Both the position numbers and the translations under genes were made by a program. Shown piece by piece: positions 1 through 18,687 of a DNA stretch of 32,000 nt. A model generated the notes under the pieces. The model searched no databases, was not told the DNA's origin, and worked only from the letters and a program-made list of their open reading frames with translations. Each line of letters starts with the position of its first letter. Position 1 is the first letter of the stretch. Source of the DNA: an uncultured Acidobacteriota bacterium (lineage in GTDB: Bacteria > Acidobacteriota > Vicinamibacteria > Vicinamibacterales > UBA2999); contig CAVXMP010000024.1 of the NCBI GenBank assembly GCA_963762925.1, positions 37,187-69,186 on the forward strand. Direction: 5' to 3'.

Positions 1-1604
1 GACGCCCAGGACACCGATCCCTATCCATAACGTCCCCAAGCCGCCCGATGACGATGTCGGTACGCTGACAGGCGCCGTGTCACCGGCGGCGGCCGTCGCT
101 GCCTTCTCACTTGCAGCGACCGCCGCTGCCTTCTCGCTCGCCGCGGGCGGCGCGTCGCCCCCGACTCGCGTGATCTCGAGCGCGTAGGGGCTCTCGACAT
201 TCTGGGCCGCCGTACTGCGCGGGCCTTCACCTTCAGGTACGCTTTGCCCTCGTAAGGGAACTCGATGTTCTCGACGCGCACCGCGGCGCCGGCATTCGCC
301 GCCTCGACCTCTTTCATCTTCACGCCGTCGCGATCCAATACCTCGAGATCGATCTCCTTCTCCTGCACGCCTGGCTTGACCCGGACGTTGTACTTCGACG
401 TCGGCGTGACGTTGAGCGCATAGAAATCGGTGGCATCGTTGGCGTGGACGTAGCCTGTGTATGCGCCAGGCTGGATGTCGATGGCGTTGGCATCGTCCGA
501 ACCGGCGTCGCGACCGCTGTTGGCATCGAACAGATCGACGAGCGTGACATCGAAACGGCTGTTCTGGTGTTGAGGGGCATGTTCATTGCCGACGAGAATG
601 TAAAAGCGTCCGCCCTGGCCGGCTCCGATCGGTACCGATACGGTCGCCTTCGCCCCCTGGTTGGCGACCCACTTGTCCACGATGTTCCGTTGATCAGGCG
701 CGTGAATGGCAATGCCCGTGTAGGGCGATGCTCCCGCCCTCGTCGACCTTGCCGCCGCGGATGGTAATGGCCTTCTCGACGGCTTGAATCGACGCAACGA
801 TCTTCTGGCCATCGCGCGCGTCGATCGCAAAGTAGTCGGTACTCGTTCTGGCGCTGATGATGGTCGAGGTGGTACGTCGTTGCCGCCTTGATCGCAACCG
901 CCTCATCGGTACTTGGCGCCGCCGCGAATCGCCTCGCCGAACGTCGAGTCACGCTCGATGAGCAGCGCACGCTGCGTGAGTTTCCGCAGGGTGTCGGCCA
1001 ATGCCGAAGCACTGCGCGCGTCGAAGTACTCGCCACCGGTTGCGCTCGAGATGGCTTCGAGCTGTGCGCGCGCCGCGGCGTCCACGTCGAACCCGATCGT
1101 GTGAACCTTGACCTTGAAGCCTTTGGCCGAGAGATCGCGCACGGTCGCGAGCGGGTCGCCTCCGCACGTTTCGATTCCGTCGCTCACGAGAATCAACGCA
1201 CGTTCTTCGTCGCTGGCAGCGCCAAAATCCTGCGCCGCCTGCTGAAGCGAGTACGCGATCGGCGTCTGGCCGCGGGGCATCGCTTTGGCCAAGGCGCCCA
1301 GGAACTGCGGCTTGTCAATCGGTTGGAACTGGACGACGAGCTCCGTGTCCTTGCAGCTCTCGTCCTTGCGCTCCTGCGGCACCCGGTGTCCGTAGTAGCG
1401 CAGCGCGACCACGCTGCCGTCAGGGATACCCGACACCGTGTCGCGAATAGCACTCTTGGCGGCGTCGATTTTGACCTGCGAGCCGAGCGACGCTCGCATC
1501 GATCCGCTGACGTCAAGAACGATCTCTATGCGAGGTGAGCCGGCGCCGACAGGAAGCGAAGCGATCACCAACGCGAGAGGCAGGAGAACCACTAACGTGC
1601 GCAT
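1..1604 (-). CDS. Secreted von Willebrand factor A (VWA) domain protein with C-terminal PPC-like beta-sandwich repeats and probable C-terminal TM anchor. The 3' end runs off the window and the frame is broken at least 4 times.
   Basis: ORF 903..1712(-): GGAGG (minus sense, 1611-1615) lies 6 nt before ATG 1604. Signal peptide MRTLVVLLPLALVIASLPVGAG; VWA/MIDAS-type motifs DVSGSM and LILVSDGIETCGG. After the stop at 903 the polypeptide continues in other frames: the 320..1036 frame (DEAVAIKAATTYHLDHHQRQNEY), the 694..906 frame (DYFAIDARDGQKIVASIQAVEK..GGKVDEGGSIA), and the 21..830 frame (PYTGIAIHAPDQ...ATDFYALNVTPTSKYNVRVKPG...GKAYLKVKA). An unlisted frame over 1..~210 reads AQNVESPYALEITRVGG...LGTLWIGIGVLGV and stays open to the edge. 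The repeated Y.L....DYF/DFYA blocks resemble pre-peptidase C-terminal (PPC) domains. Frame breaks lie near 908, 838, 728 and 212. Confidence 0.7.
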
Positions 1605-1769
1605 GGATTGCCTCCAGATCGGGGAGTATGTGACTATAGCTACGTTCCTGCGGGCAAACCAGTTCGCGAATCCCCCACAGGCGCACCTCTTCGGCGCTAT
1701 CGCCGAGCTCAACCGTAACGTCGCCGTAACTATTCCTGAGGTCTGAGTCGCGCTTCACCTCGGTGAGCA

Positions 1770-3522
1770 ATGGCTGACGACCATCCGTCGCGGACAACCC
1801 ACCGATCGACCGGCCGCCCCATCGCAGTCGTACCCGGTGCCCTCCTCGCCAATCGCTACGAAATACTCGCGTACATCGGCAAGGGCGGAATGGGGGTCGT
1901 CTACAAGGCCCTTGATCGAACACTGGATGAAACGGTTGCGATCAAGGTCCTGCGGCAGCAATTTCTCGATGACCCGGCGATGACGCAGCGGTTGCTCGCC
2001 GAAATCAAGCTCGCCCGCCGCGTGACCCACAAGAACGTTTGTCGCATCCATGATTACGGCGCGGCGGAATCCGTCGGGTTCATCTCGATGCAGTTCATCG
2101 ATGGGATCGAGCTTGGCCAGATGGTCCGCACGGCCGGGGGCGTCAGCCTTGGCGAGGGGTACGACATCGCTCTCCAGCTCGTGGACGGCCTCGAGGCCAT
2201 CCACGATCAGGGCATCGTTCACCGCGACTTCAAAACGGCCAATGTGATGATCGATCGGCATGGCACGGCGCTACTCATGGACTTTGGCATCGCCAAATTC
2301 TGGCAGGGCGAAGCAGGGATGACACTGACCGCGCCTGGCCAGATCATTGGCTCACCTCAGGTACATGAGTCCCGAGCAGGCGCAGGGCGAGCCGCTCGAT
2401 CCGAGGAGCGACATCTACGCGCTAGGCGTCGTCCTCTTCGAGCTGTTCACGGGAACGCTCCCGTTCACGGCCGACAACTTCGCGGCGATGCTCTACAAAA
2501 AGGTATACGAGCCGCTGCAGCTGGATTCTCCGGCCGCTGCAAGGCTTCCTGCGGCACTCACGCCCGTCATCAAGAAGGCACTCGCCCCGGTGGCTGTGGA
2601 TCGCTATCCATCAACGCGGGAGCTCAGAGCCGCCTTGCTCGAGGCGCGCGCTCAGACGGGCGCCGACCAGCCCGACGCCTCGACGACGATCGCGACAAAA
2701 GTTCAGAACCTGCAAGACGCGGCGCTCGTCGTTGCGAGTCCCGCTTCTCCTGATGCAATCACTTCCAGCAGTGCTCGCCGCCGGTGGCTGATGACCGGCA
2801 TGACGGTCGCCGCAGTTGTGCTGATCGCGATCATCGTCCGAACCGCGCTGCCCTTCTTTCAACCAACCTCAGACCCGATCCGTGCTTCGACCGTGAGCAC
2901 GAGCACTCCGCCAACAGCCTCCGTCCGTAGCAACGACTCACCTCAGGCAGCCTCGAGCGCCGCAGTACCTTCGAATGAAACCGATCGCTCGAAGGCGGCA
3001 CAGACTATATTACCTTCCACGATCTCGGCGAATCCGTCGGAGCGTGAGATGAACTTATGTGATGACGGTGATGCTGCGGCCTGTGTGGCACTGGCGCGGG
3101 CGGCGGAGGCGACGAGAGATTTCGACCGTGCCGCGGATCTCTATCTCAAAGCGTGCAATGGCAGGGCCGCCGCCGGATGCACCGCGTTCGGCGTGTTATA
3201 CAACCGCGGGCTCGGCGTCACGCGCGATGCGATGCAGGCGGCCATGTACTACGAGCGCGGCTGTGCGCTCGGCGACATGGCTGGATGCAACAACCTGGGC
3301 ACTGTGTATCAGTTCGGGTCGATTGGTTTCCGCGACCCCGCGAAAGCGGCCGGTCTTTACGAGCGTGCGTGCTCGACTGGTCACGTGGACGGCTGCGCGA
3401 ATCTCGGGCTGTTGTTGCTGGACTCGCCTGGCCTCGCGCCGGAAGAGCAACAGCGCGCGCGGCAGCTGCTCGAAAGGGCATGCGCCGCCGGCATCGCACG
3501 CGCGTGCGGCAAGATCAGGTAA
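1770..3522 (+). CDS. Receptor-type Ser/Thr protein kinase: Hanks kinase domain, single TM helix, S/T/P-rich linker, Cys-paired Sel1-like repeats. One frameshift.
   Basis: ORFs 1770..2753 and 2347..3522 are one gene. Kinase motifs: [26 protein letters not shown]. An extra G at ~2361 splits ..GQIIGSPQ | YMSPEQAQG.., followed by [13 protein letters not shown] helix [19 protein letters not shown]-terminal repeats of the form C..G....C..LG.LY..G.GV..D...A (e.g. [37 protein letters not shown]) are typical of Sel1/Hcp-like cysteine-rich repeats. Confidence 0.85.
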
Positions 3523-3808
3523 TCATCACTTCAACCAATGCCGTGGTCGGTGATCCGTCAATTCTTTTTTGCTCGCATCGCCGCACAGGCGAGTTGAGAT
3601 TCACTCCGTCCCCTGCTCCTTGTTTTCGATCGCGTGCGCGCTGTTCATTTCTGAGCTGGAGTGCGAGGCTTGACAACCGCCTGGTGGGCCCCGACACCAA
3701 GTCGCCGGTGTCGCTCGCTGGCCGCGTGCAGATCGCCTGTGGGCTGATACAATCCGGCCGCATTGACGGGCGGGCCACCGTCCCGGGCGACTGTGTTAGG
3801 ACCCCATC

Positions 3809-4984
3809 ATGAGCGCGTCGCTACGGATCCTCGGCCTCGCAACGCTCGCGACGTTGGTTGGATTCGCGTGGAGATTCGGTTTGAGTTGGCTTCTTCTGGG
3901 GACGGCACTCGTCCTCATCGCTCTCGTCGTTCATTTGCTGATGACCGCACATCGGCGGAGGCGCTCAGCGCCTTTACCGTATCCACGGCCGACGTTGGGT
4001 GGCCCGGCTCGTCGTGACCAGGACGCTGCCGCCGTGCCCAGGAGCACGACCCTTCAGCCCCCGGCATCACCTTCCCGAGCTTCCGAGGGCACCCGGCCAC
4101 ATCCTCACGAAGAGCACTCGTCAGCGGCCTCGCCTTCGCGCTCCCGTCCGCCTGTCACCGACGATGTCTGGTGCACTGCCTTCTCGCCTTCCGCCGGCGC
4201 GCCTGGCGATACGGTGCTGCTCCAAGTGTTCGCACACCGACGCGCGCATGCCGGCAACGTTCGGAGGACGGCGGCCGAGTTCGATCCATCGGCGAGTGCC
4301 CGGGGCGCCACGCTACTCGATCAGCGGGTCGAGCGCGGTTCTGCGTTGACCTTCGTGCTCGCCATGAAACATGCCGAGGTCGAACCTGGCATCCAGAGGC
4401 TCGTGTGGCACGGCGAGCCCGCAGCGATTCAATTCTCGATCGAAATTCCCAGCGACGTGGCCGCCAACAATCTGATCGGAACCATCTACGTGGCGCAGGA
4501 CGGTATCCCCCTCGGCCACCTCAAGTTCGTGATTCGGGTATCTAGCGCTGTCCAACCCGAGCCTGCAGCGAATTGTGCGACGAACCTCACACACTATCGC
4601 TCGGCGTTCGTGTCCTACGCGTCTCACGATCGCAGCGAGGTGCTGAAACGCGTGCAGATGCTGTCGCGCCTCTCGATTCCCTTCTTCCAGGATGTGCTGA
4701 GCCTCGAGCCAGGTGAACGCTGGGCGCGGGCGCTGTACAAGAGCATCGACGACAGCGACGTGTTCTTCCTGTTCTGGTCGACCAGCGCGAAGAACTCTCC
4801 CTGGGTCATGAAGGAGGTTCAGTCCGCGATCGAGCGCAAGGGCGGCGACGAGTTCGCGCGGCCTGAAATCGTCCCAGTAATTATCGAGGGCCCGCCGCCG
4901 GTGTCCCCACCTCCGGAGCTGGCGCACCTGCACTTCAATGACGCACTCATGTCCTTCATGCAGCGGGGCGATCAACCCCTTTGA
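3809..4984 (+). CDS. Membrane-anchored TIR domain protein (2 N-terminal TM helices, Pro/Ser-rich linker, beta-rich middle domain, C-terminal TIR).
   Basis: Intact 391-aa ORF starting at ATG 3809. Hydrophobic helices ILGLATLATLVGFAW and LSWLLLGTALVLIALVVHLL. The TIR core spans residues ~263-385: YRSAFVSYASHD..EVLKRV..L...IPFFQDVLSLEPGERW...LYKSIDDSDVFFLFWS..AKNSPWVMKEV. The candidate catalytic Glu sits in WVMKE at nt 4814-4816. The middle segment DDVWCTAFSPSAGAPGDTVLLQVFAH...GTIYVAQDGIPLGHLKFVIRV looks like an Ig-like sandwich. Confidence 0.8.
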   Translation: MSASLRILGLATLATLVGFAWRFGLSWLLLGTALVLIALVVHLLMTAHRRRRSAPLPYPRPTLGGPARRDQDAAAVPRSTTLQPPASPSRASEGTRPHPHEEHSSAASPSRSRPPVTDDVWCTAFSPSAGAPGDTVLLQVFAHRRAHAGNVRRTAAEFDPSASARGATLLDQRVERGSALTFVLAMKHAEVEPGIQRLVWHGEPAAIQFSIEIPSDVAANNLIGTIYVAQDGIPLGHLKFVIRVSSAVQPEPAANCATNLTHYRSAFVSYASHDRSEVLKRVQMLSRLSIPFFQDVLSLEPGERWARALYKSIDDSDVFFLFWSTSAKNSPWVMKEVQSAIERKGGDEFARPEIVPVIIEGPPPVSPPPELAHLHFNDALMSFMQRGDQPL

Positions 4985-5126
4985 TGCACGGCCAGCGGCC
5001 ATCGCCGGCCCACCGCCGCGTGCTGGGCGTCTCGATCGTGTTAACTCTGGGTGAAATTCCTTGTTTGGCGCGTCTGCCGTGCGCGATTCGGTGACACCGA
5101 TCCGTCTAACTAGCACAGCGAGAACA

Positions 5127-5144
5127 CGACGTCATTCCGACGTC
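5127..5144 (+). promoter_or_regulatory. Two copies of the palindrome-containing heptamer CGACGTC spaced 11 bp centre to centre; possible operator upstream of the 5202 gene.
   Basis: CGACGTC at 5127-5133 and 5138-5144, inside the 217-bp gap between the TIR gene stop (4984) and ATG 5202. No other support. Confidence 0.2.
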
Positions 5145-5201
5145 GAGAACACCCGCGGCTGGTCAGTCCTTGACCTCCCGCGGCGCATGTGGGGTTATGC
5201 A

Positions 5202-8196
5202 ATGCGTAACGTTCTATCCACCCTTACGTGTTTGTGCTGCCTGACCGCATCCGCCTATGCCTCCGTCGACAGCCAGTGGGCGCAGTTCCGGAAGCGCTTT
5301 CCTTACCACGTCCAGGTCATCGCGCTTTCAGCACCAGAACGCGACGGCACCCGCACGCTGATTATCAGCGAGCCTCCTCCGTCTATCACACTGGATGCCG
5401 TGACAACCGCGTACGGCGACATCGTCACAAGGATCAGCACCAGGCAGCATCGTATCGGGTTCGATGGCTGGGTGAAAGACATCGTAGGGGTGCTGCCGGC
5501 GATGAGTCCCGACCAACAACAAATATTCGTCCAGGATCTTTCGCGCTATATCTTCGGCACCTCTTACAAGGCGTATGCGCTAGAACTATCTGAGTCGCCA
5601 AGCAGCACGTCGTCTTACGACCTGACCGTCGGTGCGTCGGCGCTGAGCGGCTGGCTCGGCTTCAACCAGGCACCGTCGTCCCCGACGGCTGATGTCGTCA
5701 ACCGGTTGGCCTGGCTCGTCGGACTCATTGCGTTGGTTATGCTGATCAAGCGACGAGGCGGCAGGGCCCTGACGGTGCTCACCGCCTGCATCGTCGTCGC
5801 GTACTGGACCACTCCCGAACCGGCGCGTCCAGGGGCAGCAGGCGTCTTGCATCCTTTGCACGGCGGCGAGCCCAAAATGCTGTCGCAACTGCTGTCGACT
5901 CCGGCCAGCGGAGTGTACATGAGCGACACGCCCGGTCTGGTGGTGCTCGTGGTTCCGCGCGACGAGGCGCTGAACAATGCCTCGGTGGCGCTTCGCGAAT
6001 TTGCGCTGGACAGCGATGTCGTGCTCGGTGCCATCGGCACACCGCACAGCGTGGCCGTTATCGCGCGCGAGCGGCAGGAGTCGGTGACCGCCTTGCCGCC
6101 GCTGCGCGCCGAAACTCTGCTGCAACTAGCGGCGGCAAGCAGCGAGGAGCTGTCGCAGAGCTATGAGCGTATGGACCTCTTCGCCGGCCGCCTCGGGACG
6201 GTGCAGCGCGACTGGGCGCCAATCTTCTTGAGTCCCCAGCTGCATGACACTGAGTCCGGCAGCCTGCTGAACATCACCGACCAGTTGCTCAAGTCCTGGT
6301 CGGAGCACGGCAACGTGAAGTACATCAACTTCAACTATCCCCCGCCGAAAAAGTATCCGTTCCCGGATGGTCTGCTGAAGCACGCCAAGGCCACGATGGT
6401 CACCTACAACTGGAACACGAAAGGCGTGGGCTATGTCGACACCCGCGAGGGTTACGACATCCTCGCGTTTTCGCGCACGGGTGCGCTGCCGGTCGACTAC
6501 CTAGGGGAGCAAGACGACCGGATGCGCGAATACGAAGATCAGGGTTACGAGTTCTTCGCCGGCGGGACCGACGATCCGAACCTTGCGCGCGTCGTGCAGT
6601 ACGCGGGTTTCTACCAGATCTGCCGCCACTTCAACCTGCACGCGACGTTCGCGGCAAGCAGCCGCCAGCGCGGCGGAGCGGATGCCGTGCAGCCACTCGC
6701 ACGCATGGTGCTTGATCGCATACTGGAAACCGACGTCGATCAGCTCGTCGATCCAGTACGCTTGGCGGCCGACGCCGACCTATCGGGCAGCGTCGGCGAG
6801 TTCCGCCAGATACGTCGGGCGCTTCAGGTCGAGGCTGTCTACGGCGAGGCCGCGCTCGACCAGATCGCTCGTGCGCTGGTACAGTCCCCGGGAGGTCTCT
6901 TCCAGCGACGCCGCGGACGAGCGGCGCCGCCGGACGCTTACGTTGGCGCGGGCGGTCTCGCGTTCACCGGTCGTGCGATCACTGATAGACGACATGACCG
7001 ACACGGCAGCACGGACCTTCGTCGATGCCGAAAGCCGGAACGACCCTGCGGGCTGGATCAAAACGCCGTCGATCGTGCTGTCTTGGAGCACCGCTCGCGA
7101 TGGTGTCAACCTCGTCGGCGGACACAGTCTGAGCAGCCGCATCTCGCATTTTTCGGCTGACGACGTCGTGTCGCCAGGCGGCGTTCGAATCGTCGAAGAG
7201 AACGGGCAGCGCGTGGTCCGGTACAACGCCGCGGACGCCGGCAAGATTCGCGAAATCGTTCGCTCGGTGGGCCGCAACCAGGAGATGACGGACAGTCAAC
7301 TAGCAAGCTTGGTGGAGACAGGCCTGCGGACCGCGCGAGCCGAGGTTCCTGTGATGCCTGCTGCCCTGCGCCTCGGCTCGCGGAGCGCCACCATTGGCCG
7401 CGGGATGGTGCCCTCCCGCACAGTGCCCCTGTCGAATTCAACGCCGTGGCGCCTGCTCGAAGACATGCCCGCGAGCCACACGCGCGCCCTCGACGCGATT
7501 GCTGATCCGCGCTTCTTCGCGATCGTGGTCGAACGGTTGGATGGAAGATACCTGGTCTCTCGCGCCGGCCACGGCTCCGTGCTCGAAGCTGGCAGTGGCG
7601 CCAGTGCTCTGGATGCGGTCGTCGATCTCACTCGGTCTGCGACGGGAGGCCGCGCGGTGCATCTCCATTTTCGCGGGATGAACAGCGAACAGGCGCGCGG
7701 TTTCGCACGGGTGACCGAGCTACACACCTCCGGGCCGAAGGGCGTCTCCATTCGCACGTCCGTGGAATCCGAGACCGGCGGGCTCAAGGTGATTGGCGAG
7801 ATTCGCAACGGTCGGTGGAACCTCGCGAAAGCCGACATCAAGGTCGTGGACACGCCGCTCGGCAGCGTGCGCAAAAGCGTGGACTTTGACGTGTCGATTC
7901 CGCACATGTCCGCCGCTGGCCGTCTGCGCGCGCGCGTGTCGATCACGTTCAAGGAGACCGTTCGCGTCACGGCGGAGTTGGTCGCCCGCCTAACGCAACG
8001 AATCGAGGCGATCCTGCAGTCAATCGTCAGGAGCGGCGAGGAATTGGACGTGCTGCTCGCGTCGCGCCGGATGATCCATGAGCTGCGCATCGGGGACGAA
8101 ACCGTTGCAACGGTCGAGATTCGTCTCGCCGGCGACGCTGGAGACATACAGATTGTTCACCATCTTCAGATCTCGAAGGATCCGGTCGGCGACTGA
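5202..8196 (+). CDS. Large (~1000 aa) hypothetical membrane protein, no recognisable family. One frameshift.
   Basis: ORFs 5061..7160 and 6583..8196 are two frames of one gene. The switch lies somewhere in ~6895-6935: ..DQIARALVQSPGGLFQ | SDAADERRRRTLTLARAVSRSPVVRSLIDDMTDTAARTF... ATG 5202 gives a classic signal peptide, MRNVLSTLTCLCCLTASAYA|SVDSQW. Two hydrophobic helices (LAWLVGLIALVMLI, ALTVLTACIVVAYW) occur ~200 aa in. The remaining ~750 aa are protein-like in composition, but I cannot assign any motif to a family. Confidence 0.6.
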
Positions 8197-9070
8197 TTGC
8201 GCACTGCTGCTCGCGATCCCGCTGAACCGGGCTGAGTACGACACGGCGTGGCAACGCGGTACAGACTTTCTGCAGGCGTACGGCGCGGCATGCGACGTCA
8301 CCGATCCCGATCGTCTGTGGCGGATCTACGAGCACTACGCTGGCCTGTGTAGCGCGGCGGTAGACGTCGCGGAGGCATATGGCGTCGCGGTTTTCCGAGG
8401 CGCCACGCTGAAAGCGCTGGCCGACGCAACCGGACGGTTCGCAACTGTCACGATAGTCGCGCATTCGCGCGAGCCCGGGATCGAGACGCGCGATATCGCG
8501 GCCTTCGACAGGCTCCATGCCTCGCTGCAAGAAATCGCAGCGGCGCTAGGTGTAACGCCGCCCCTAATCCGGGTCGACGAACCAGCCCGGCTTGCGGCTT
8601 GGCTGGACACGGCGCTCGGTTCGCGTGAGTCCGGCTCTCCGGAGCGAGTAGCAGACACCCGCGCCGCAGCATGGCGTGCCCATCGTCAGCAGGAGCGATG
8701 GCTACGGCGACGGGCAATCGAGCAGCTCTGTCCGGGAGGTCTGAGTGGCGGGCCGGCTGTCGAACTCGAAGATGGATTGTGGCCGGTGCCCGCCATCGAC
8801 GCGGCGCTGCCGTTGCAGTTTCAGACCCTCGATCTTACGGTGTGCGACTCGGTGCTGCTCGCGGATGTGTTGCGGGCGCGGCGCACCGACGGCATCATTC
8901 TGGCCAACGCTCATCCGACGACACCGGACTTCCGCCTGGCGCTGTACCGTGAAACGGTGCGGCTGATGGTCCGGCACGGCAGTTCGTACCACGAGGCGGG
9001 AATCCGTCTGCGCCGCAGCTTGCGAGGTCGGCCGTCACCAAGCGTGCCGAAGATCGCGCCGGCCAATTGA
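8195..9070 (+). CDS. Hypothetical ~290-aa module lacking its own start codon. It is either the C-terminal domain of the 5202 gene or a separate gene with an indel-masked start. Weak His/Cys (caspase/CHAT-like) pattern.
   Basis: Listed as ORF 8078..9070, but the first 119 nt overlap the convincing C-terminus of the upstream gene and translate to Arg/Ser-rich junk. After the upstream stop (8194-8196) there is no in-frame ATG/GTG/TTG for ~570 nt. Removing base 8194 joins ..ISKDPVGD to DCALLLAIPLNRAEYD... The module contains ..RFATVTIVAHSRE.., ..VELEDGLWPVPAIDAAL.. and ..FQTLDLTVCDSVLLADV..DGIILANAHPTTPDFRLALYRETVRLM. Confidence 0.45.
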   Translation, partial: DCALLLAIPLNRAEYDTAWQRGTDFLQAYGAACDVTDPDRLWRIYEHYAGLCSAAVDVAEAYGVAVFRGATLKALADATGRFATVTIVAHSREPGIETRDIAAFDRLHASLQEIAAALGVTPPLIRVDEPARLAAWLDTALGSRESGSPERVADTRAAAWRAHRQQERWLRRRAIEQLCPGGLSGGPAVELEDGLWPVPAIDAALPLQFQTLDLTVCDSVLLADVLRARRTDGIILANAHPTTPDFRLALYRETVRLMVRHGSSYHEAGIRLRRSLRGRPSPSVPKIAPAN

Positions 9071-9191: not shown

Positions 9192-10057
9192 TCAGCCGGT
9201 CCCGCTCTTCGCGCCAAGCGCTCCATCCTCGAGGTATTTGACGAACACCACTTCGTTCCGCTTCTCGTTGTAGAGCAGCTCGTCGACGCTGCCGCGAACC
9301 ATCAGGAGGCCAAACCCTCCCGGGCGGAGTCCCTTTCTCTTCGCGGACCTGCATGTGCGCGATCGGATCGTCGGGGGCCTGCCAATCGCCGCGTGCGGCA
9401 GATCGTCGATGTTGAATCCAGGACCCGGATCGGCAATGCGGTAGAGCAGCATGCGCTTGGCGCGCAGGTACGAAATCCGCACGGTGCGTCTCGGGTCGAG
9501 GCGACCGCCCCATTCAATCGCGTTCATCAGCAGCTCGCGAAAGGCGTAGGCGATCGACTCGCGCATGTCCGGCGCGAGATCGGCGTCGAGTCCGCGCCAT
9601 CACGTCTTGAAGGCGTTCGACGGCTTCGCGTTGGCAGGGGACGACCAGCTCGACCCAGTCCGGGTCGCGCGGAAATCACCTCGATGGCAGGGAGCTCTGG
9701 CGCCTTGAGCACCTCGCGGACGGTCTGGAGCAGCTCCATCGATGCGATCGGCTTGTGCACGTACTTGAACGCCTGCTGACGCACCGCCTCGAGCAGCGTT
9801 TCCGGAGCGTCGTCGGAGGTCATCACGATCACGCGAGGGCGCGACTTGCGTGTCCGCAGTCGTTCGAGCAGATCGAGCCCGTTCATCCGCGGCATCCAGA
9901 CATCCAGCAACAGCAGATCGAAGCGCCGGTGGCGCAGCGCCTTGAGTGCGTCGACACCGTCCTTTGCCACCGTCACGGTGAACCCGGCGCTCGTCAGGAC
10001 CTTGCGCAGCACGTGCCGCGTCATTCGATCGTCGTCAGCAACGAGAATGCGGCTCAT
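9192..10057 (-). CDS. Response regulator with receiver domain fused to an RsbW/SpoIIAB-like HATPase_c domain. About 4 frameshifts.
   Basis: ORF 9527..10057: MSRILVADDD...LLLLDVWMPRMNGLDLL...VIVMTSDD...KYVHKP (REC). The gene continues across frames as ..ISARP|DWVELVVPCQREAVERLQDVMAR|LDADLAPDMRESIAYAFRELLMNAIEWGG...YRIADPGPGF..HAAIG|.PDDPIAHMQVREEKG|LRPGGFGLLMVRGSVDELLYNEKRNEVVFVKYL. These pieces come from ORFs 9192..9566 and 8911..9513. Inserted single bases are visible at cccgGactgg, cggActcgac and gggActccg (minus sense). Confidence 0.8.
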
Positions 10058-15857: not shown

Positions 15858-18687
15858 TCAACGCCCTTCGTTCACCGCACAGACGCTGGCGTCCAAGTCG
15901 CCGATCAGCCTCACCCAGGAGACGGCGTCGACGACACCCAGGTGCCGGCAGGCGACGTTTCTCAGATCATCCACGCGCCACGGACTGACGTGCAGGTAAT
16001 TCTCGCCGGCTGCGACAATCCGCGAACCATCACCGACGAAGGTCACCGCATCGACGCGAAACGGAAACGAGAGTTGCGCCCGCGCGGTGCCGTTCGCCGC
16101 GTCCCAGATGCGGACGGTGCGATCGTGTGCGCCACTTGCGACCAAACGCTCATCGATACTGATATCCACGGCGCCGACTCGCCCTGCGTGCAGTCCTGTC
16201 CAAACGCGCTGACCGTTCGTCGGATTCCACAACGACACCGCGCCGTCTTCGCTGCCGGTCGCGAGCCGGGTGTTGCTGAACTGCAGCGCTCGCACCGAGG
16301 TGCTCACCGGTATGCGCACACGATCCCGCCATTCGCCGGCGACGTCCCACACCGTGACGGCGCCGTCGCTTGCGATGGCAAGAGCATCGCCCTTCGCCGT
16401 CAGCGCGAGCGCGTCGACCGGCGCGTCGAAGCGATGCTGCGAGACGAATGCCGCATCCTTCGCCGCCAAAGCTTCACGACGTGATCGGCGGACGTGGTCG
16501 CAACGATCGACCCATCGGCTGCAAGCGTCGCGCGCACGAGCCGTTCGGTCCCGGGCTCATGAACGATTTCGCGGGACGACTGCAGATCGGTGCCATCGAA
16601 CACGAACACCGTGCCCTCGCTCCCAGCCGTCATAATCACGCGTCCGTCGCGGCTCACTGCGGCGCCGGTCAGGTCGTTGCCGTGGCGCCGCAGCCGCGCC
16701 TCCACCCGAAGTGGTCGAGTCCCCAGACACGGCCGGCAAACTCGCCTGCAGTGATGACCCTCGTGCCGTCGGCGGTTGCGACCGCGGCGGTCACCCCTTG
16801 CCCATGACGGCTCCAATCGACGTCCGGATCTGGATCCACGTTCCACACGCGTACCCATCCGTCGCTCCCAGCCGTGGCAAACGATTGGCTATCCGGCGCC
16901 GGGCCGACGCTGCTGATCGATTGCGCGCGGCTGCGGATGAACGAGGTCAGGTTTGAGCCGTGGGTCGTGATGCCCGTAAGGCGGGTCGACTGAAAGAAAT
17001 CGTTGAAGTCGTCTCGCGCCAGACCAGCATCCCACACTCGAACGATGCCATCCTCCGCCGCGGTAATGATGGAGCGCCCATCCGGCGTGAACTCCGCGGC
17101 GAGTACGCGAGAGGGATGCGGCAGTTGCGCGATGGTCGGGGACATGTCCGATAGCGTGGGATACAACGTGACGAGCCCGGTGACATTGGCAGCGAGGAGC
17201 GCGTCGCCAGACGGATCGAAGCGCACGTGCGCGAAGCCGGTACTGTCGACGAGCCGCTGCCGCTCCGCACCGGATGCGACATCGAGCACCGTGAGCCGTG
17301 TTGGTTCCTCGACGGGGAGCAGCCGGCTGTCCTCGCTGAACTGCACGTCGGCGGACTCCCACAATCGACCGCGTTTGAGCGGTTGTTCGAGTGAAACCAC
17401 GGGGCGGCACTGTGCCGTTCCCTGCAGCTCCCAGAGGCACGCGACCGGCGCGCCCGGTTGCGTCGCCTGTATACCCAACGCGACGTGAGCTCCGTTGCGG
17501 CTGATGGTGGCCGACCGGATCCCGGCCTGGACCGGCAACTCGCCAATGGAATTCCAAGCCTCGCTCGCCCACACTCTCACTGACGCCGTTGATGGTCCGG
17601 TGCTGGCTGACGTCATCAACAACCGGCCGTCGGTGCTGAACTCGGCGCGCGACACGCCGGCGTGAGGCACACACGACACGGTGCGCCCACTCTCGATTTC
17701 GACGATCAACACGCACGGCCCGGCATCAGACACGACGAGCAGCCGTTCATTCGGGCTGATGACGGCGGCAGCCAGAGCGGCACGTTCGGTCCGCCATACC
17801 TCCTTCATCGTGCCGGCCTCGAGAACCGTCAGCACATCGCGCGGTGTATCCAGCCGTCCGGCGGTGAGCAAGTAGCGGCCACCGGCGCTGTAGCGGACGC
17901 GACTGGCCAACCGGCCAATCTTCTGCGCCTTGAGCGGACGGCGTGCGAACGGGAGCACTCGCGCGAGAACCTGGCCGGCCTCGGGCGATGTGTGTCGCGA
18001 TAGCGCCGCGACGCCGTACGCGAGCGCGCGCAGGGGATTCTGATCGACATCGAATGCGAGCGCGGCGCGGGCGCTCAATTGCTCGGCCTCTCGCTGGCGT
18101 GCCTGATCGGAAGCCCGGCGCGCCGACCACCACGTTGCCGCACCGAGCGCCGCGGCAACGACGACGATGAAGGCGATGAGCCGCTGCGCGAAAATGCGGC
18201 TGCCTGTCGATTTGAGGTGCTGCCGGATGCCTCTGAGCACGTCGCGCGACGGGCTCGACTCCAGCGCGGCCGGCGACTCGTCGAGCCAGACGAGGTTGAG
18301 CGGCGTGAGCAACGGCCACGCTCCCTGTGCGAAGGAGCCCGAGAAGTCGACGGGCACCACGGGTCGGCCGGTCTGCAGATAGGTCTGCACTTCGAGTTGC
18401 ACATGTTTCGACCGGCTGGCGCCCTCTGTGGCCACGACGATCAGCAGCCGGCTTTTCTTGAGCGCCTTGGCCAGCGTCGGAGTCAGTAGATCGCCGGCAA
18501 GCACATCACGGCGATCGAGAAAGCACACAATCCCGGTGCGTTCGAGGTGCCGATGCAGGGCGCGCGCGTAGCGGCGGCCGTCGCGGCGCGCGTACCAGAT
18601 GAACACGTCGTACAGGAAGAGGGTGACGCACGCACGCACCAGCCCTCGCCAGCGCAACCGCAGCGTTCGTCCAGGAGAACCAGCCAT
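15858..18687 (-). CDS. TIR-TM-WD40 protein (~940 aa): N-terminal TIR domain, one hydrophobic helix, then ~14 WD40-like repeats. Two frameshifts.
   Basis: ORF 16669..18687 starts at ATG 18687. TIR: LYDVFIWYARRDGRRYARALHRHLERTGIVCFLDRRDVLAGDLLTPTLAKALKKSRLLIVVATEGASRSKHVQLEV. Helix: LIAFIVVVAAALGAATWW. Repeats end in ..VRVWAS, ..IVRVWDAG, ..GWVRVWNV, ..GRVWGLD. The gene continues after a break near 16700-16712 in ORF 16400..16858 (GNDLTGAAVSRDGRVIMTAGSEGTVFVFD...ADHVVKLW). After a second break near 16465-16475 it continues in ORF 15858..16469 (..DGAVTVWDV, ..DGAVSLWNP, ..DRTVRIWDA). Confidence 0.8.

Follow-up and report, generated by a model that had tools for sequence, protein, structure and literature searches.

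A widespread, so far undescribed bacterial operon and its lineage-specific, TIR-associated variant in an uncultured acidobacterium

We analyzed a cluster of three genes within a 32-kb stretch of DNA from an uncultured acidobacterium (the whole stretch is called the window here) and identified it as a lineage-specific version of an operon that is widespread, self-contained, and so far undescribed. In its usual form, this operon consists of a gene for a large, probably exported protein (Big), then a gene for a protein with invariant His and Cys residues (C), and then a gene for a small two-transmembrane (2-TM) protein (D). In the window, D is missing and a gene for a membrane-anchored TIR protein lies directly upstream of big; this TIR gene is a lineage-specific add-on to, or a replacement on, the older big-C core. 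Judged from sequence, the TIR link appears to be functional but accessory, and the proposal of a preliminary description of this DNA, that the locus represents a new TIR-associated system, is credible.

Results

The three reading units lie on the same strand, as had been proposed (Table 1). The product of the first had been described as a 2-TM TIR protein retaining the conserved Glu, and each element of that description was recovered, namely, an N-terminal hydrophobic hairpin, a TIR_2 domain (PF13676; Pfam E = 2.1e-17 and 64.2 bits, above the curated cutoff of 28 bits), and Glu336 (WVMKE), which aligns in the same column as the Glu of WPQKE (PdTIR 3h16), WCLME (L6 3ozi), and WVKKE (9m0n). We take this column to be that of the catalytic Glu (the alpha-C W-x-x-x-E position, as in E135 of L6 and in bacterial TIRs), and the domain is competent-looking with respect to catalysis. 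Pfam found no DUF4062 domain in this protein. The hairpin has a short WRFG loop, and both are also kept in the homologues of loci L001 and L050; given the HRRRR motif behind the second helix and the positive-inside rule, the remainder of the protein is predicted to be cytoplasmic. The middle domain, which had been described as Ig-like but gave no Pfam match and no informative PDB match, is homologous to a segment of two Bacteroidota proteins (L046, aa 310 to 453, BLASTP E = 1e-15; L043, aa 264 to 407, E = 2e-5). A relationship of this domain to the BatD-like protein of L032 was considered and rejected, since comparison of the two showed none. A word-indexed homologue search with the domain retrieved only the window protein itself. 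Matches of the TIR protein to models of ThsB, the Thoeris TIR protein, were weak (E = 8e-5 to 8e-3 in PADLOC; 23 bits against a cutoff of 220 for the NCBIfam Thoeris models), and a PADLOC TIR-NLR match was confined to the TIR part (aa 266 to 360).

Table 1. Coordinates of the features of the locus within the window
Feature	Positions (nt)	Strand	Remarks
TIR protein gene	3809..4984	+	391 aa; TM hairpin, Pro/Ser-rich linker, beta-rich middle domain, TIR_2
N-terminal 2-TM hairpin of TIR protein	3827..3943	+	aa 7-45; predicted from hydropathy scan and sequence
Middle domain of TIR protein	4160..4576	+	aa 118-256; homologous to a domain in L046 and L043
TIR_2 domain	4607..4942	+	aa 267-378; putative catalytic Glu336 at nt 4814-4816
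Conserved noncoding element, GAGAACAC-N17(palindrome GACGTCATTCCGACGTC)-GAGAACAC	5120..5152	+	50 nt 5' of the big ATG
Large exported protein gene (big)	5202..8196	+	~997 aa; ATG 5187 as an alternative start; frameshifted once, 6872-6886
Predicted Sec-type signal peptide of Big (MRNVLSTLTCLCCLTASAYA)	5202..5261	+	N-terminal hydrophobic segment
Predicted TM hairpin of Big	5703..5822	+	two helices flanking a KRRGGR loop
Frameshift site (GTACAGTCCCCGGGAGG, C4/G3 run)	6872..6886	+	one indel splits big between frame 3 and frame 1
His/Cys protein gene (C)	8153..9070	+	305 aa from TTG 8153; alternatively ATG 8078

The second reading unit is a single gene, as shown by tblastn with its homologue P0001 (74% identical), of which residues 1 to 556 match 5202 to 6872 in frame 3 and residues 561 to 996 match 6886 to 8193 in frame 1. 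The two halves are free of stop codons and 71 to 77% identical to P0001, and the 997-aa reconstruction aligns end to end with intact homologues of 975 to 1,080 aa. It agrees with the earlier view of a protein of about 1,000 aa with a signal peptide and two TM helices. Of the 114 full-length homologues, 105 have a hydrophobic segment at the N terminus, and some homologues carry a lipobox signal or a Zn ribbon with a single TM anchor; we predict from these features that Big is exported rather than cytoplasmic. Clear homologues have 0, 2, or 4 internal TM segments (in 28 of the 114, only one was resolved at the hydropathy threshold, and these were taken as unresolved hairpins). The core is extremely conserved, with invariant polar and aromatic residues that include R264, D271, R288-E289-R290, N402-W403-N404-T405, and H639. 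With more than 490 homologues, Big can no longer be called an orphan, though the family is unannotated: none of these homologues has a precomputed Pfam domain. One homologue contains a weak PG_binding_1 insert (E = 5e-4). The AF2 model of P0001 (pLDDT 87) found no structural match by Foldseek (best E = 0.025 in PDB, to a type III pantothenate kinase, and 0.03 in BFVD), and these hits, like a few other weak PDB matches to actin-like/ASKHA folds, were set aside, with nothing built on them. Neither Big nor C matched anything in Pfam, NCBIfam, PADLOC, or PDB; 27 and 47 family members, searched one by one at E ≤ 1 in Pfam, NCBIfam, and PADLOC, likewise yielded nothing apart from TIR, and the family profiles gave nothing meaningful against PDB sequences. 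No profile or structure search places Big in a housekeeping family.

C, which is identical to P0121 of the source annotation (305 aa, 100%), had been thought either to be fused to the large protein or to follow it directly. The latter is the case, its start overlapping the stop codon of big; fusion does not hold, since the homologues of C are independent proteins of 280 to 315 aa. The family is large (about 1,229 clusters at 50% identity). H104 (nt 8462 to 8464) and C231 (nt 8843 to 8845) are invariant in 27 homologues, as are R106, E190, G200, E204, D227, T229, R261, and Y265. The His and the Cys follow predicted hydrophobic strands (VTIVAH and LDLTVCDS, respectively), in that order and with a spacing of 36 to 37 aa in short forms of the protein, and it is this order and spacing that suggest a protease. 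The AF2 model (pLDDT 91.9) matched no protease or other fold in PDB by Foldseek (best E = 0.14, TM < 0.27), and neither CHAT nor Peptidase_C14 was found by Pfam. C has no signal peptide and is predicted to be a cytoplasmic alpha/beta protein of about 300 aa. Export through the Tat or Sec pathway was considered and rejected, as the N-terminal hydrophobic segment forms a beta-strand of the core (pLDDT 98) and the family shows no conservation of the RR motif.

We define the operon family by an exported protein of about 1,000 aa matching profile A3, directly followed by a protein matching profile A2. The window belongs to it, the two frames of big giving E = 8e-245 and 1e-107 and C giving E = 3e-125. 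big and C are adjacent in 36 of 42 genome loci, mostly with overlapping stop and start codons, and three of the remaining six are cut by contig ends. D, a 2-TM hairpin protein of about 130 aa, follows in about 35 of the 42, as well as in L002 to L004, L047, and L048, and is fused to C in P0181, P0191, P0193, L019, and L028. The operon is spread over at least 10 phyla, with unrelated neighborhoods, its hosts including Acidobacteriota, Burkholderiaceae, Myxococcota, Cyanobacteria, Bacteroidota, Planctomycetota, Verrucomicrobiota, and Gemmatimonadota. Within genera it is patchy (three Paraburkholderia, one Caballeronia, and one Sorangium representative among 185,579 species genomes), which fits an accessory, horizontally moving module. 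The 113 neighboring proteins carried 124 Pfam families, each seen at most twice, so that the operon is self-contained. These neighbors showed no enrichment for defense genes, PADLOC matches being sporadic, and tblastn of 72,556 plasmids and 50,697 phages gave no match. The neighborhoods are made up of metabolic and housekeeping genes rather than defense islands.

A TIR gene lies directly upstream of big in four independent contigs, the window, L001, L049, and L050, with differing flanks where these are visible; the refutation that had been envisaged, that big is never syntenic with TIR genes, is thus not what we found. The TIR protein is represented by full-length homologues in L001 (phmmer E = 1e-137) and L050 (58% identity) and by a C-terminal fragment in L049. 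The window and L001 extend past C and both lack D (no match to the D profile at E ≤ 10), while L049 and L050 end before the position of D; relatives at about 48% identity carry D but lack a TIR gene. A remnant of D was sought 3' of C in the window and not found, the space being occupied by a frameshifted, convergent RR-HATPase_c_2 gene on the other strand. In the Bacteroidota loci L043 and L046, C is fused to a homologue of the middle domain and to DUF4062 (PF13271; Pfam E = 6e-18 and 4e-15), again in the absence of D. The four TIR-big contigs, the missing D, and the fusions of middle domain and DUF4062 to C together suggest that the TIR link is functional. In L040, a CHAT protease gene takes the place of C; C itself was also considered as a CHAT homologue, and hhalign against the L040 protein was negative. 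The earlier idea of a new TIR pairing therefore stands with respect to a conserved trio whose partners match no known component of a TIR system; it does not stand in the sense of TIR-specific partners, as about 40 of some 50 loci examined have big and C with the small 2-TM protein and without TIR.

The noncoding element upstream of big is nearly identical in L049 (329 to 361) and L050 (1810 to 1842), and is found neither in L001 nor in any D-type locus. A promoter and terminator scan and a search of Rfam yielded nothing informative. The Ser/Thr kinase gene upstream of the TIR gene was considered as a further component and dismissed as coincidental: L001 lacks it, and a kinase adjoins the operon only in L047 and as 1 of the 113 scanned neighbors. 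The window also contains a second TIR gene, encoding a TIR-WD40 protein unrelated to the membrane-anchored one.

Discussion

The reading that we tentatively favor, while holding it at somewhat less than an even chance, is that of a conflict module that spans the envelope and whose effector, a 2-TM protein or an NADase, can be swapped. Such a module would span the inner membrane; Big would monitor something in the periplasm or envelope, and the membrane hairpins would couple it to cytoplasmic C. The output would be a swappable toxic effector, which in most lineages would be the small 2-TM protein, in the clade of the window the TIR domain, degrading NAD+, and in some Bacteroidota DUF4062, and the whole would act as a conflict system of the abortive-infection type. 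C could be the Cys hydrolase or protease through which the tethered TIR domain is freed or activated, perhaps by cleavage of the Pro/Ser-rich linker of 70 aa. A physical complex and the direction of signaling would both be implied. The defense role of the module is unproven, given that its neighbors are not enriched for defense genes and that no plasmid or phage copies were found. The sensor/effector pairing proposed in the preliminary description is complicated by the predicted export of Big: with Big extracytoplasmic and C and TIR cytoplasmic, coupling would have to pass through tiny membrane hairpins. In L043, Big resembles a lipoprotein and the fused C protein is devoid of TM segments, an arrangement that the membrane-hairpin model leaves unexplained. 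The frameshift in the window copy of big and the lack of structural matches for Big and C also speak against a conflict module. A bolder version, which we regard as doubtful, is that of a trans-envelope surveillance class in which Big, with a novel fold, would detect a periplasmic or envelope event such as phage attack or wall damage and signal through hairpin contacts to C and from there to a suicide effector (2-TM, TIR, DUF4062, or CHAT).

The usual partners of bacterial TIR proteins are indeed absent, as had been noted from the sequence: no SIR2, SLOG, Macro, cyclase, Argonaute, STING, or SAVED domain was found among the ORFs scanned across the 32 kb, all 200 aa or longer (Pfam, E ≤ 0.001 to 0.01). 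The window has no ThsA, Macro, SLOG, or SIR2 protein of the kind that would mark Thoeris; no CD-NTase or pyrimidine cyclase (by Pfam and PADLOC, in the scanned ORFs) as in CBASS or Pycsar; and no Argonaute (MID-PIWI) or APAZ protein, again in the scanned ORFs, as in short pAgo systems and SPARTA. With regard to TIR-STAND and Avs, the 391-aa protein has no domain, such as a STAND NTPase, besides its TM hairpin, middle domain, and TIR. Like the TIR proteins of CBASS (TIR-SAVED), Pycsar (PycTIR), SPARTA (TIR-APAZ), and Avs/TIR-STAND, the window protein has a TIR_2 domain with Glu in the catalytic column, and, like the effectors of CBASS and Pycsar, TIR of the window type seems to be an exchangeable output that alternates with a small TM protein. 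However, unlike these systems, the window has no cyclase, SAVED, Argonaute/APAZ, or STAND NTPase; its TIR domain is tethered by a 2-TM hairpin of its own and is partnered by an exported 1,000-aa protein and a His/Cys protein from unannotated families. Zorya (ZorAB) and Kiwa (KwaA) have membrane-embedded phage defense sensors and share with our model the idea of an envelope sensor controlling a cytoplasmic effector; in contrast to these, neither Big nor C is matched by PADLOC, and the bulk of the candidate sensor is predicted to be periplasmic. With the clan CD peptidases (caspase and CHAT), in which a catalytic His-Cys dyad lies behind strands 3 and 4 of a caspase-hemoglobinase fold, C shares the strand-His/strand-Cys order, and in L040 a CHAT gene occupies its position, but C has no Pfam CHAT or Peptidase_C14, Foldseek caspase-like, or hhalign match.

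DUF4062 is a TIR-like NADase that depletes NAD+ in defense (bioRxiv 10.64898/2026.05.01.722283; 10.64898/2026.06.25.731849). L043 and L046 resemble Swarozyc and Evangelion in carrying this domain, which is joined to C through a middle domain of the window type; Swarozyc and Evangelion, however, are single-gene systems with other auxiliary domains, and the window has TIR_2 and no DUF4062. In type IV Thoeris, the pairing of TIR with a caspase-like protease is established (bioRxiv 10.1101/2024.10.24.620036; Science 2025), and a recent survey proposes some 29 configurations of Thoeris, which differ in their effectors (bioRxiv 10.64898/2025.12.03.692087). As in type IV, and as in types II and V, which combine TIR with TM effectors, TIR in the window adjoins a possible Cys hydrolase gene and genes for membrane proteins. 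Unlike in Thoeris, the partners are mostly found in the absence of TIR, C cannot be recognized as a caspase, there is no signal receiver of the SLOG or Macro type, and the TIR protein falls far below the ThsB family cutoffs.

It is possible, if on the unlikely side, that the big-C-D core is instead a physiological envelope module (for cell wall, surface polymer, or envelope stress), in which TIR, DUF4062, and CHAT would be additions with a regulatory or scaffolding role, or else rare cases of exaptation. The export of Big, its conserved polar and aromatic core, such as is seen in periplasmic enzymes or binding proteins, the PG_binding_1 insert in one homologue, the metabolic and housekeeping neighborhoods, and the lack of plasmid and phage copies would all accord with such a role. 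It is harder to reconcile with a distribution that is very patchy within genera, with flanks that are unrelated, with the independent gain, three times, of domains of a cell-killing type (TIR_2, DUF4062, and CHAT), with the retention of Glu in the catalytic column, and with the exchange of a 2-TM protein for an NADase, a swap generally associated with conflict systems. That the copy in the window is a decaying pseudogene cluster, which would be compatible with any of the other readings, seems to us unlikely. The frameshift in big does point in this direction, and the source annotation likewise splits the gene (P0003, 657 aa); however, the shift lies within a homopolymer run, both halves are open and well conserved, and the kinase gene (1770 to 3522) and the RR-HATPase_c_2 gene (9195 to 10057) are also shifted within 8 kb, a pattern suggestive of assembly indels. 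Given these other frameshifts, an assembly error is as likely an explanation of the indel as a true pseudogene.

Two further explanations concern the TIR gene itself. In a Thoeris-like arrangement, TIR would sense infection and produce an ADPR-derived signal that acts on C, as a caspase-like effector comparable to that of type IV Thoeris (bioRxiv 10.1101/2024.10.24.620036), or on Big. The precedent of that pairing, the many configurations proposed in the Thoeris survey (bioRxiv 10.64898/2025.12.03.692087), the motif order and spacing in C, and the weak ThsB matches make this conceivable, and yet we consider it improbable. Most loci have Big and C but no TIR, so that these two cannot depend on a signal made by TIR; C has no Pfam, NCBIfam, or PADLOC match and no structural match to caspases; the TIR-like domain present in cis on C in L043 and L046 fits an effector better than a generator of a diffusible signal; the ThsB scores are far too low (23 versus 220 bits); and in the survey text, as searched, the TIR-big-C architecture is not described. 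Finally, the TIR gene could be a mere neighbor, a stand-alone membrane TIR functionally unrelated to Big and C. A 217-nt gap, which holds a conserved element of its own, separates it from big; the same TIR domain (68 to 74% identity) also occurs away from big, in L051 and L052, where it is truncated or adjoins IS21; and the window harbors a second, unrelated TIR gene. Against this, four independent contigs, with differing flanks where these can be seen, share the TIR-big arrangement, D is absent from both of those that extend past C, and a Rosetta-stone fusion joins the middle domain to C in a different phylum, so that coincidence strikes us as very improbable indeed.

If the conflict-module reading is correct, the TIR- and NADase-armed conflict systems would gain a widespread member (about 1,200 C clusters at 50% identity in at least 10 phyla, mostly in soil bacteria) whose candidate sensor would be extracytoplasmic, an uncommon location among known defense systems. 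It would provide functional handles on three families that lack annotation and structural relatives, and the natural alternation of effectors (2-TM, TIR, DUF4062, and CHAT) would make it easier to separate output from sensing by experiment. A trans-envelope module of the bolder kind, built from three unannotated protein families, would amount to a bacterial equivalent of receptor-TM-TIR logic. Even as a physiological envelope module, the operon would represent a large, conserved family with novel folds predicted at high confidence and would be worth characterizing.

Results

The plus strand between 3809 and 9070 (window G+C, 65%) carries three real genes, whose features are collected in the table. 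By profile and alignment, the TIR domain of the gene 1 product is a bona fide family member, and the positive-inside rule predicts that it lies in the cytoplasm with the linker and middle domain. When phmmer aligns the domain with TIRs of solved structure, Glu336 (WVMKE) shares a column with the Glu of WPQKE in PdTIR (3h16) and of WCLME in flax L6 (3ozi), in agreement with the preliminary description, which had this conserved residue as retained; we take the column to be that of the catalytic Glu.

Features of the window and of comparison loci (L numbers; window coordinates unless a locus is named)
Feature	Position	Strand	Details
Ser/Thr kinase-Sel1 gene	1770-3522	+	Hanks-type kinase, TM segment, Sel1/TPR repeats; frameshift near 2350-2750
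Gene 1 (TIR protein)	3809-4984	+	391 aa
Gene 1, hydrophobic helix pair	aa 7-45		N-terminal; short WRFG loop between helices, HRRRR after
Gene 1, Pro/Ser-rich linker			70 aa, between helix pair and middle domain
Gene 1, middle domain	aa 118-256		beta-rich
Gene 1, TIR_2 domain	aa 267-378		Pfam E=2.1e-17, 64 bits against a cut-off of 28
Non-coding element, 33 nt	5120-5152; L049 329-361; L050 1810-1842		GAGAACAC-GACGTCATTCCGACGTC-GAGAACAC
Gene 2 (Big)	5202-8196	+	single gene; frame 3 to 6872, frame 1 from 6886
Gene 3 (C)	8153-9070	+	TTG start, 305 aa; identical to source annotation's P0121
Response-regulator-HATPase_c_2 gene	9195-10057	-	receiver E=1.6e-30; HATPase_c_2 (RsbW-like) E=1e-12; two overlapping frames
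Second, unrelated TIR protein	16669-18687, on into 15858-16469	-	N-terminal TIR_2 E=8e-14, then WD40 repeats
Big zinc-ribbon extensions	L046 6593-7100; L032 931-1400
CHAT-domain locus	L040 6983-12462
TIR copies, operon absent	L051 14-3262; L052 168-2972
Five-gene cluster	L003 1-5407	-	442, 148, 152, 349 and 1110 aa

Gene 2 encodes a large exported protein (Big), and its frame break sits in a C4/G3 run. The 997-aa reconstructed product opens with a Sec-type signal peptide and has a TM hairpin whose loop contains KRRGGR; intact homologues, 975 to 1080 aa long, align with it along the whole length. The kinase gene is also frameshifted, and since the receiver and HATPase_c_2 domains lie in two overlapping frames, their gene looks like a single one carrying a frameshift. 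Three frameshifts within about 8 kb suggest an indel-prone assembly, so the indel in gene 2 may be an assembly error. Further WD40 repeats in the ORF downstream of the TIR-WD40 gene mean that it too may be frameshifted. The kinase strongly matches PADLOC PD-T4-6 kinase models (E=9e-53). L047 also has a kinase beside the operon, but L001 has none, and the adjacency is therefore probably coincidental.

The His/Cys module, first described as either fused to the large protein or directly following it, does follow it, as a separate gene (C) overlapping the gene 2 stop codon. Nor is Big the orphan it was taken for: a word-indexed search returned more than 490 homologues, none with a precomputed Pfam domain, and an exhaustive HMMER search placed 1,229 50%-identity clusters in the C family at E<=1e-3 (867 of these at E<=1e-10). 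Neither family matched Pfam, NCBIfam or PADLOC, even with 27 and 47 members scanned singly at E<=1, and neither profile matched PDB sequences. Confident AlphaFold2 models reached a pLDDT of 91.9 for C and of 87.3 (pTM 0.85) for Big, represented by the intact, 74% identical homologue P0001. Foldseek found nothing significant in the PDB for C (best E=0.14, TM<0.27) or for Big, whose top match there was a type III pantothenate kinase (E=0.025) and whose weak matches included a few more actin-like folds, nor in BFVD for Big (best E=0.03). The strand-His (VTIVAH104sR) and strand-Cys (LDLTVC231DS) motifs of C, 36-37 aa apart in its short forms, resemble those of clan CD peptidases, an identity that no profile or structure search supported.

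We surveyed 42 loci from GTDB species genomes and eight contigs from an exact-protein look-up. C directly follows Big in 36 of the 42, mostly with stop/start codon overlap; of the six exceptions, three are truncated at the end of a contig. The next gene, in about 35 of the 42 and likewise in L002-L004, L047 and L048, encodes D, a protein of 125-150 aa in which a 2-TM hairpin joins a cytoplasmic N-terminal region to a short helical tail at the C-terminus. P0181, P0191, P0193, L019 and L028 are single-protein C-D fusions, and in L031 D directly follows a shortened Big. The operon occurs, with only a handful of representatives per genus, in taxa including Acidobacteriota, Paraburkholderia/Caballeronia, Sorangium, Cyanobacteria, Bacteroidota, Planctomycetota, Verrucomicrobiota, Gemmatimonadota, Abditibacteriota and Leptonemataceae. 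Because no Pfam family recurs more than twice among the flanks (113 proteins, 124 different families), the operon is self-contained, in unrelated neighbourhoods. Upstream of it in L003 are five unannotated genes, one product weakly matching Tubulin_2; this cluster was found again in a second metagenome contig.

An N-terminal hydrophobic segment precedes the first conserved motif in 105 of 114 full-length Big homologues, and lipobox-type signals occur in L014, L015, L031, L043 and Sorangium P0108. The Bacteroidota proteins of L046 and L032 instead carry an N-terminal extension with a Cys4 zinc ribbon (two CxxC...CxxC motifs) followed by a single TM anchor, the extension being a predicted cytoplasmic handle on an exported protein. 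Clear cases among the homologues have 0, 2 or 4 TM helices between the N-terminal domain and the remainder; the single segment that our hydropathy threshold resolved in 28 of the 114 we read as an unresolved hairpin of the kind present in P0001 and in the protein of the window. Together, these features predict an extracytoplasmic body for Big. C lacks a signal peptide (in the model, the first hydrophobic stretch forms a core strand), and its fusion to the N-terminus of D would place C against the membrane's inner face.

The large ORF is syntenic with the hairpin-middle-domain-TIR gene, which immediately precedes Big in four contigs: the window, L001 (Big 74% identical, flanks wholly different), L049 (Big 70% identical, the contig edge leaving the final 49 aa of the TIR ORF) and L050 (TIR protein 58% identical, followed by the start of Big). 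The D profile has no match at E<=10 in the window or L001, and the L049 and L050 contigs stop short of its expected position. L047, L048 and the P0007 contigs, relatives at about 48% identity, carry Big-C-D without TIR, and on this distribution the TIR arrangement is derived.

About 50 nt upstream of the Big ATG is a 33-nt element of direct 8-mers either side of a palindrome, near-identical in the window, L049 and L050 although the TIR proteins there are just 58-70% identical, and absent from L001 and every D-type locus. A hairpin with a few compensatory changes follows, reaching about 5190 in the window. The element may act as an operator or within the 5'-UTR. TIR domain copies 68-74% identical to the window's also occur without the operon, in L051, which additionally encodes a pentapeptide-repeat-TIR protein, and in L052, where the truncated ORF adjoins an IS21-type IstA/IstB pair.

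Independently, in Bacteroidota loci L043 and L046, from which D is absent by profile, C is extended C-terminally by a middle-domain homologue (BLASTP E=1e-15 in L046 and 2e-5 in L043) and DUF4062 (Pfam E=4e-15 in L046 and 6e-18 in L043), recently reported to be a TIR-like NADase mediating anti-phage defence (bioRxiv 10.64898/2026.05.01.722283; 10.64898/2026.06.25.731849). The slot beside C thus holds either D or a middle domain plus TIR-like NADase; in the window's clade it is empty and the hairpin-middle-TIR protein is encoded upstream. This arrangement ties the TIR protein to the core operon by a Rosetta-stone link. In L040, a Phaeodactylibacter MAG, a 562-aa CHAT-domain protein (E=7e-8) stands in the place of C, after a 1262-aa Big with a weak match to the peptidoglycan-binding domain PG_binding_1.

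Discussion

We propose that Big acts outside the cytoplasm as a sensor or enzyme and that membrane hairpins couple it to C and an output module. In most lineages this output would be D; in the window and some Bacteroidota it would be an NADase, either TIR or TIR-like. Given the clan CD-like motifs of C, it may be C that releases or activates the tethered effector. This scheme does not explain trans-membrane coupling in L043, whose Big looks like a lipoprotein and whose C fusion is soluble.

We hold only tentatively that the locus as a whole is a conflict system. The occupants beside C fit the effector swapping known from CBASS and Pycsar; against this reading, PADLOC matches among flanking proteins are sporadic, and tblastn found no copy of Big in collections of 72,556 plasmids and 50,697 phages. 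That the core is instead a physiological envelope module is a serious, if somewhat unlikely, rival; a categorically new trans-envelope surveillance system we consider rather unlikely. Thoeris-like signalling by the TIR protein is also unlikely, as most loci have Big and C but no TIR, and the TIR-like domain of L043 and L046 is part of the same protein as C.

The window locus lacks the features that define Thoeris, CBASS, Pycsar, SPARTA and TIR-STAND systems, which bears out the earlier remark that the usual TIR partners are missing, and the searchable text of a recent TIR-system survey (bioRxiv 10.64898/2025.12.03.692087) does not describe a TIR-Big-C architecture. The closest working likeness is to modular abortive-infection systems with an NADase effector, the sensor and adaptor here coming from undescribed families. 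We would rate the locus as belonging with TIR/NADase-armed conflict systems, in which what is new would be its sensor and adaptor families.
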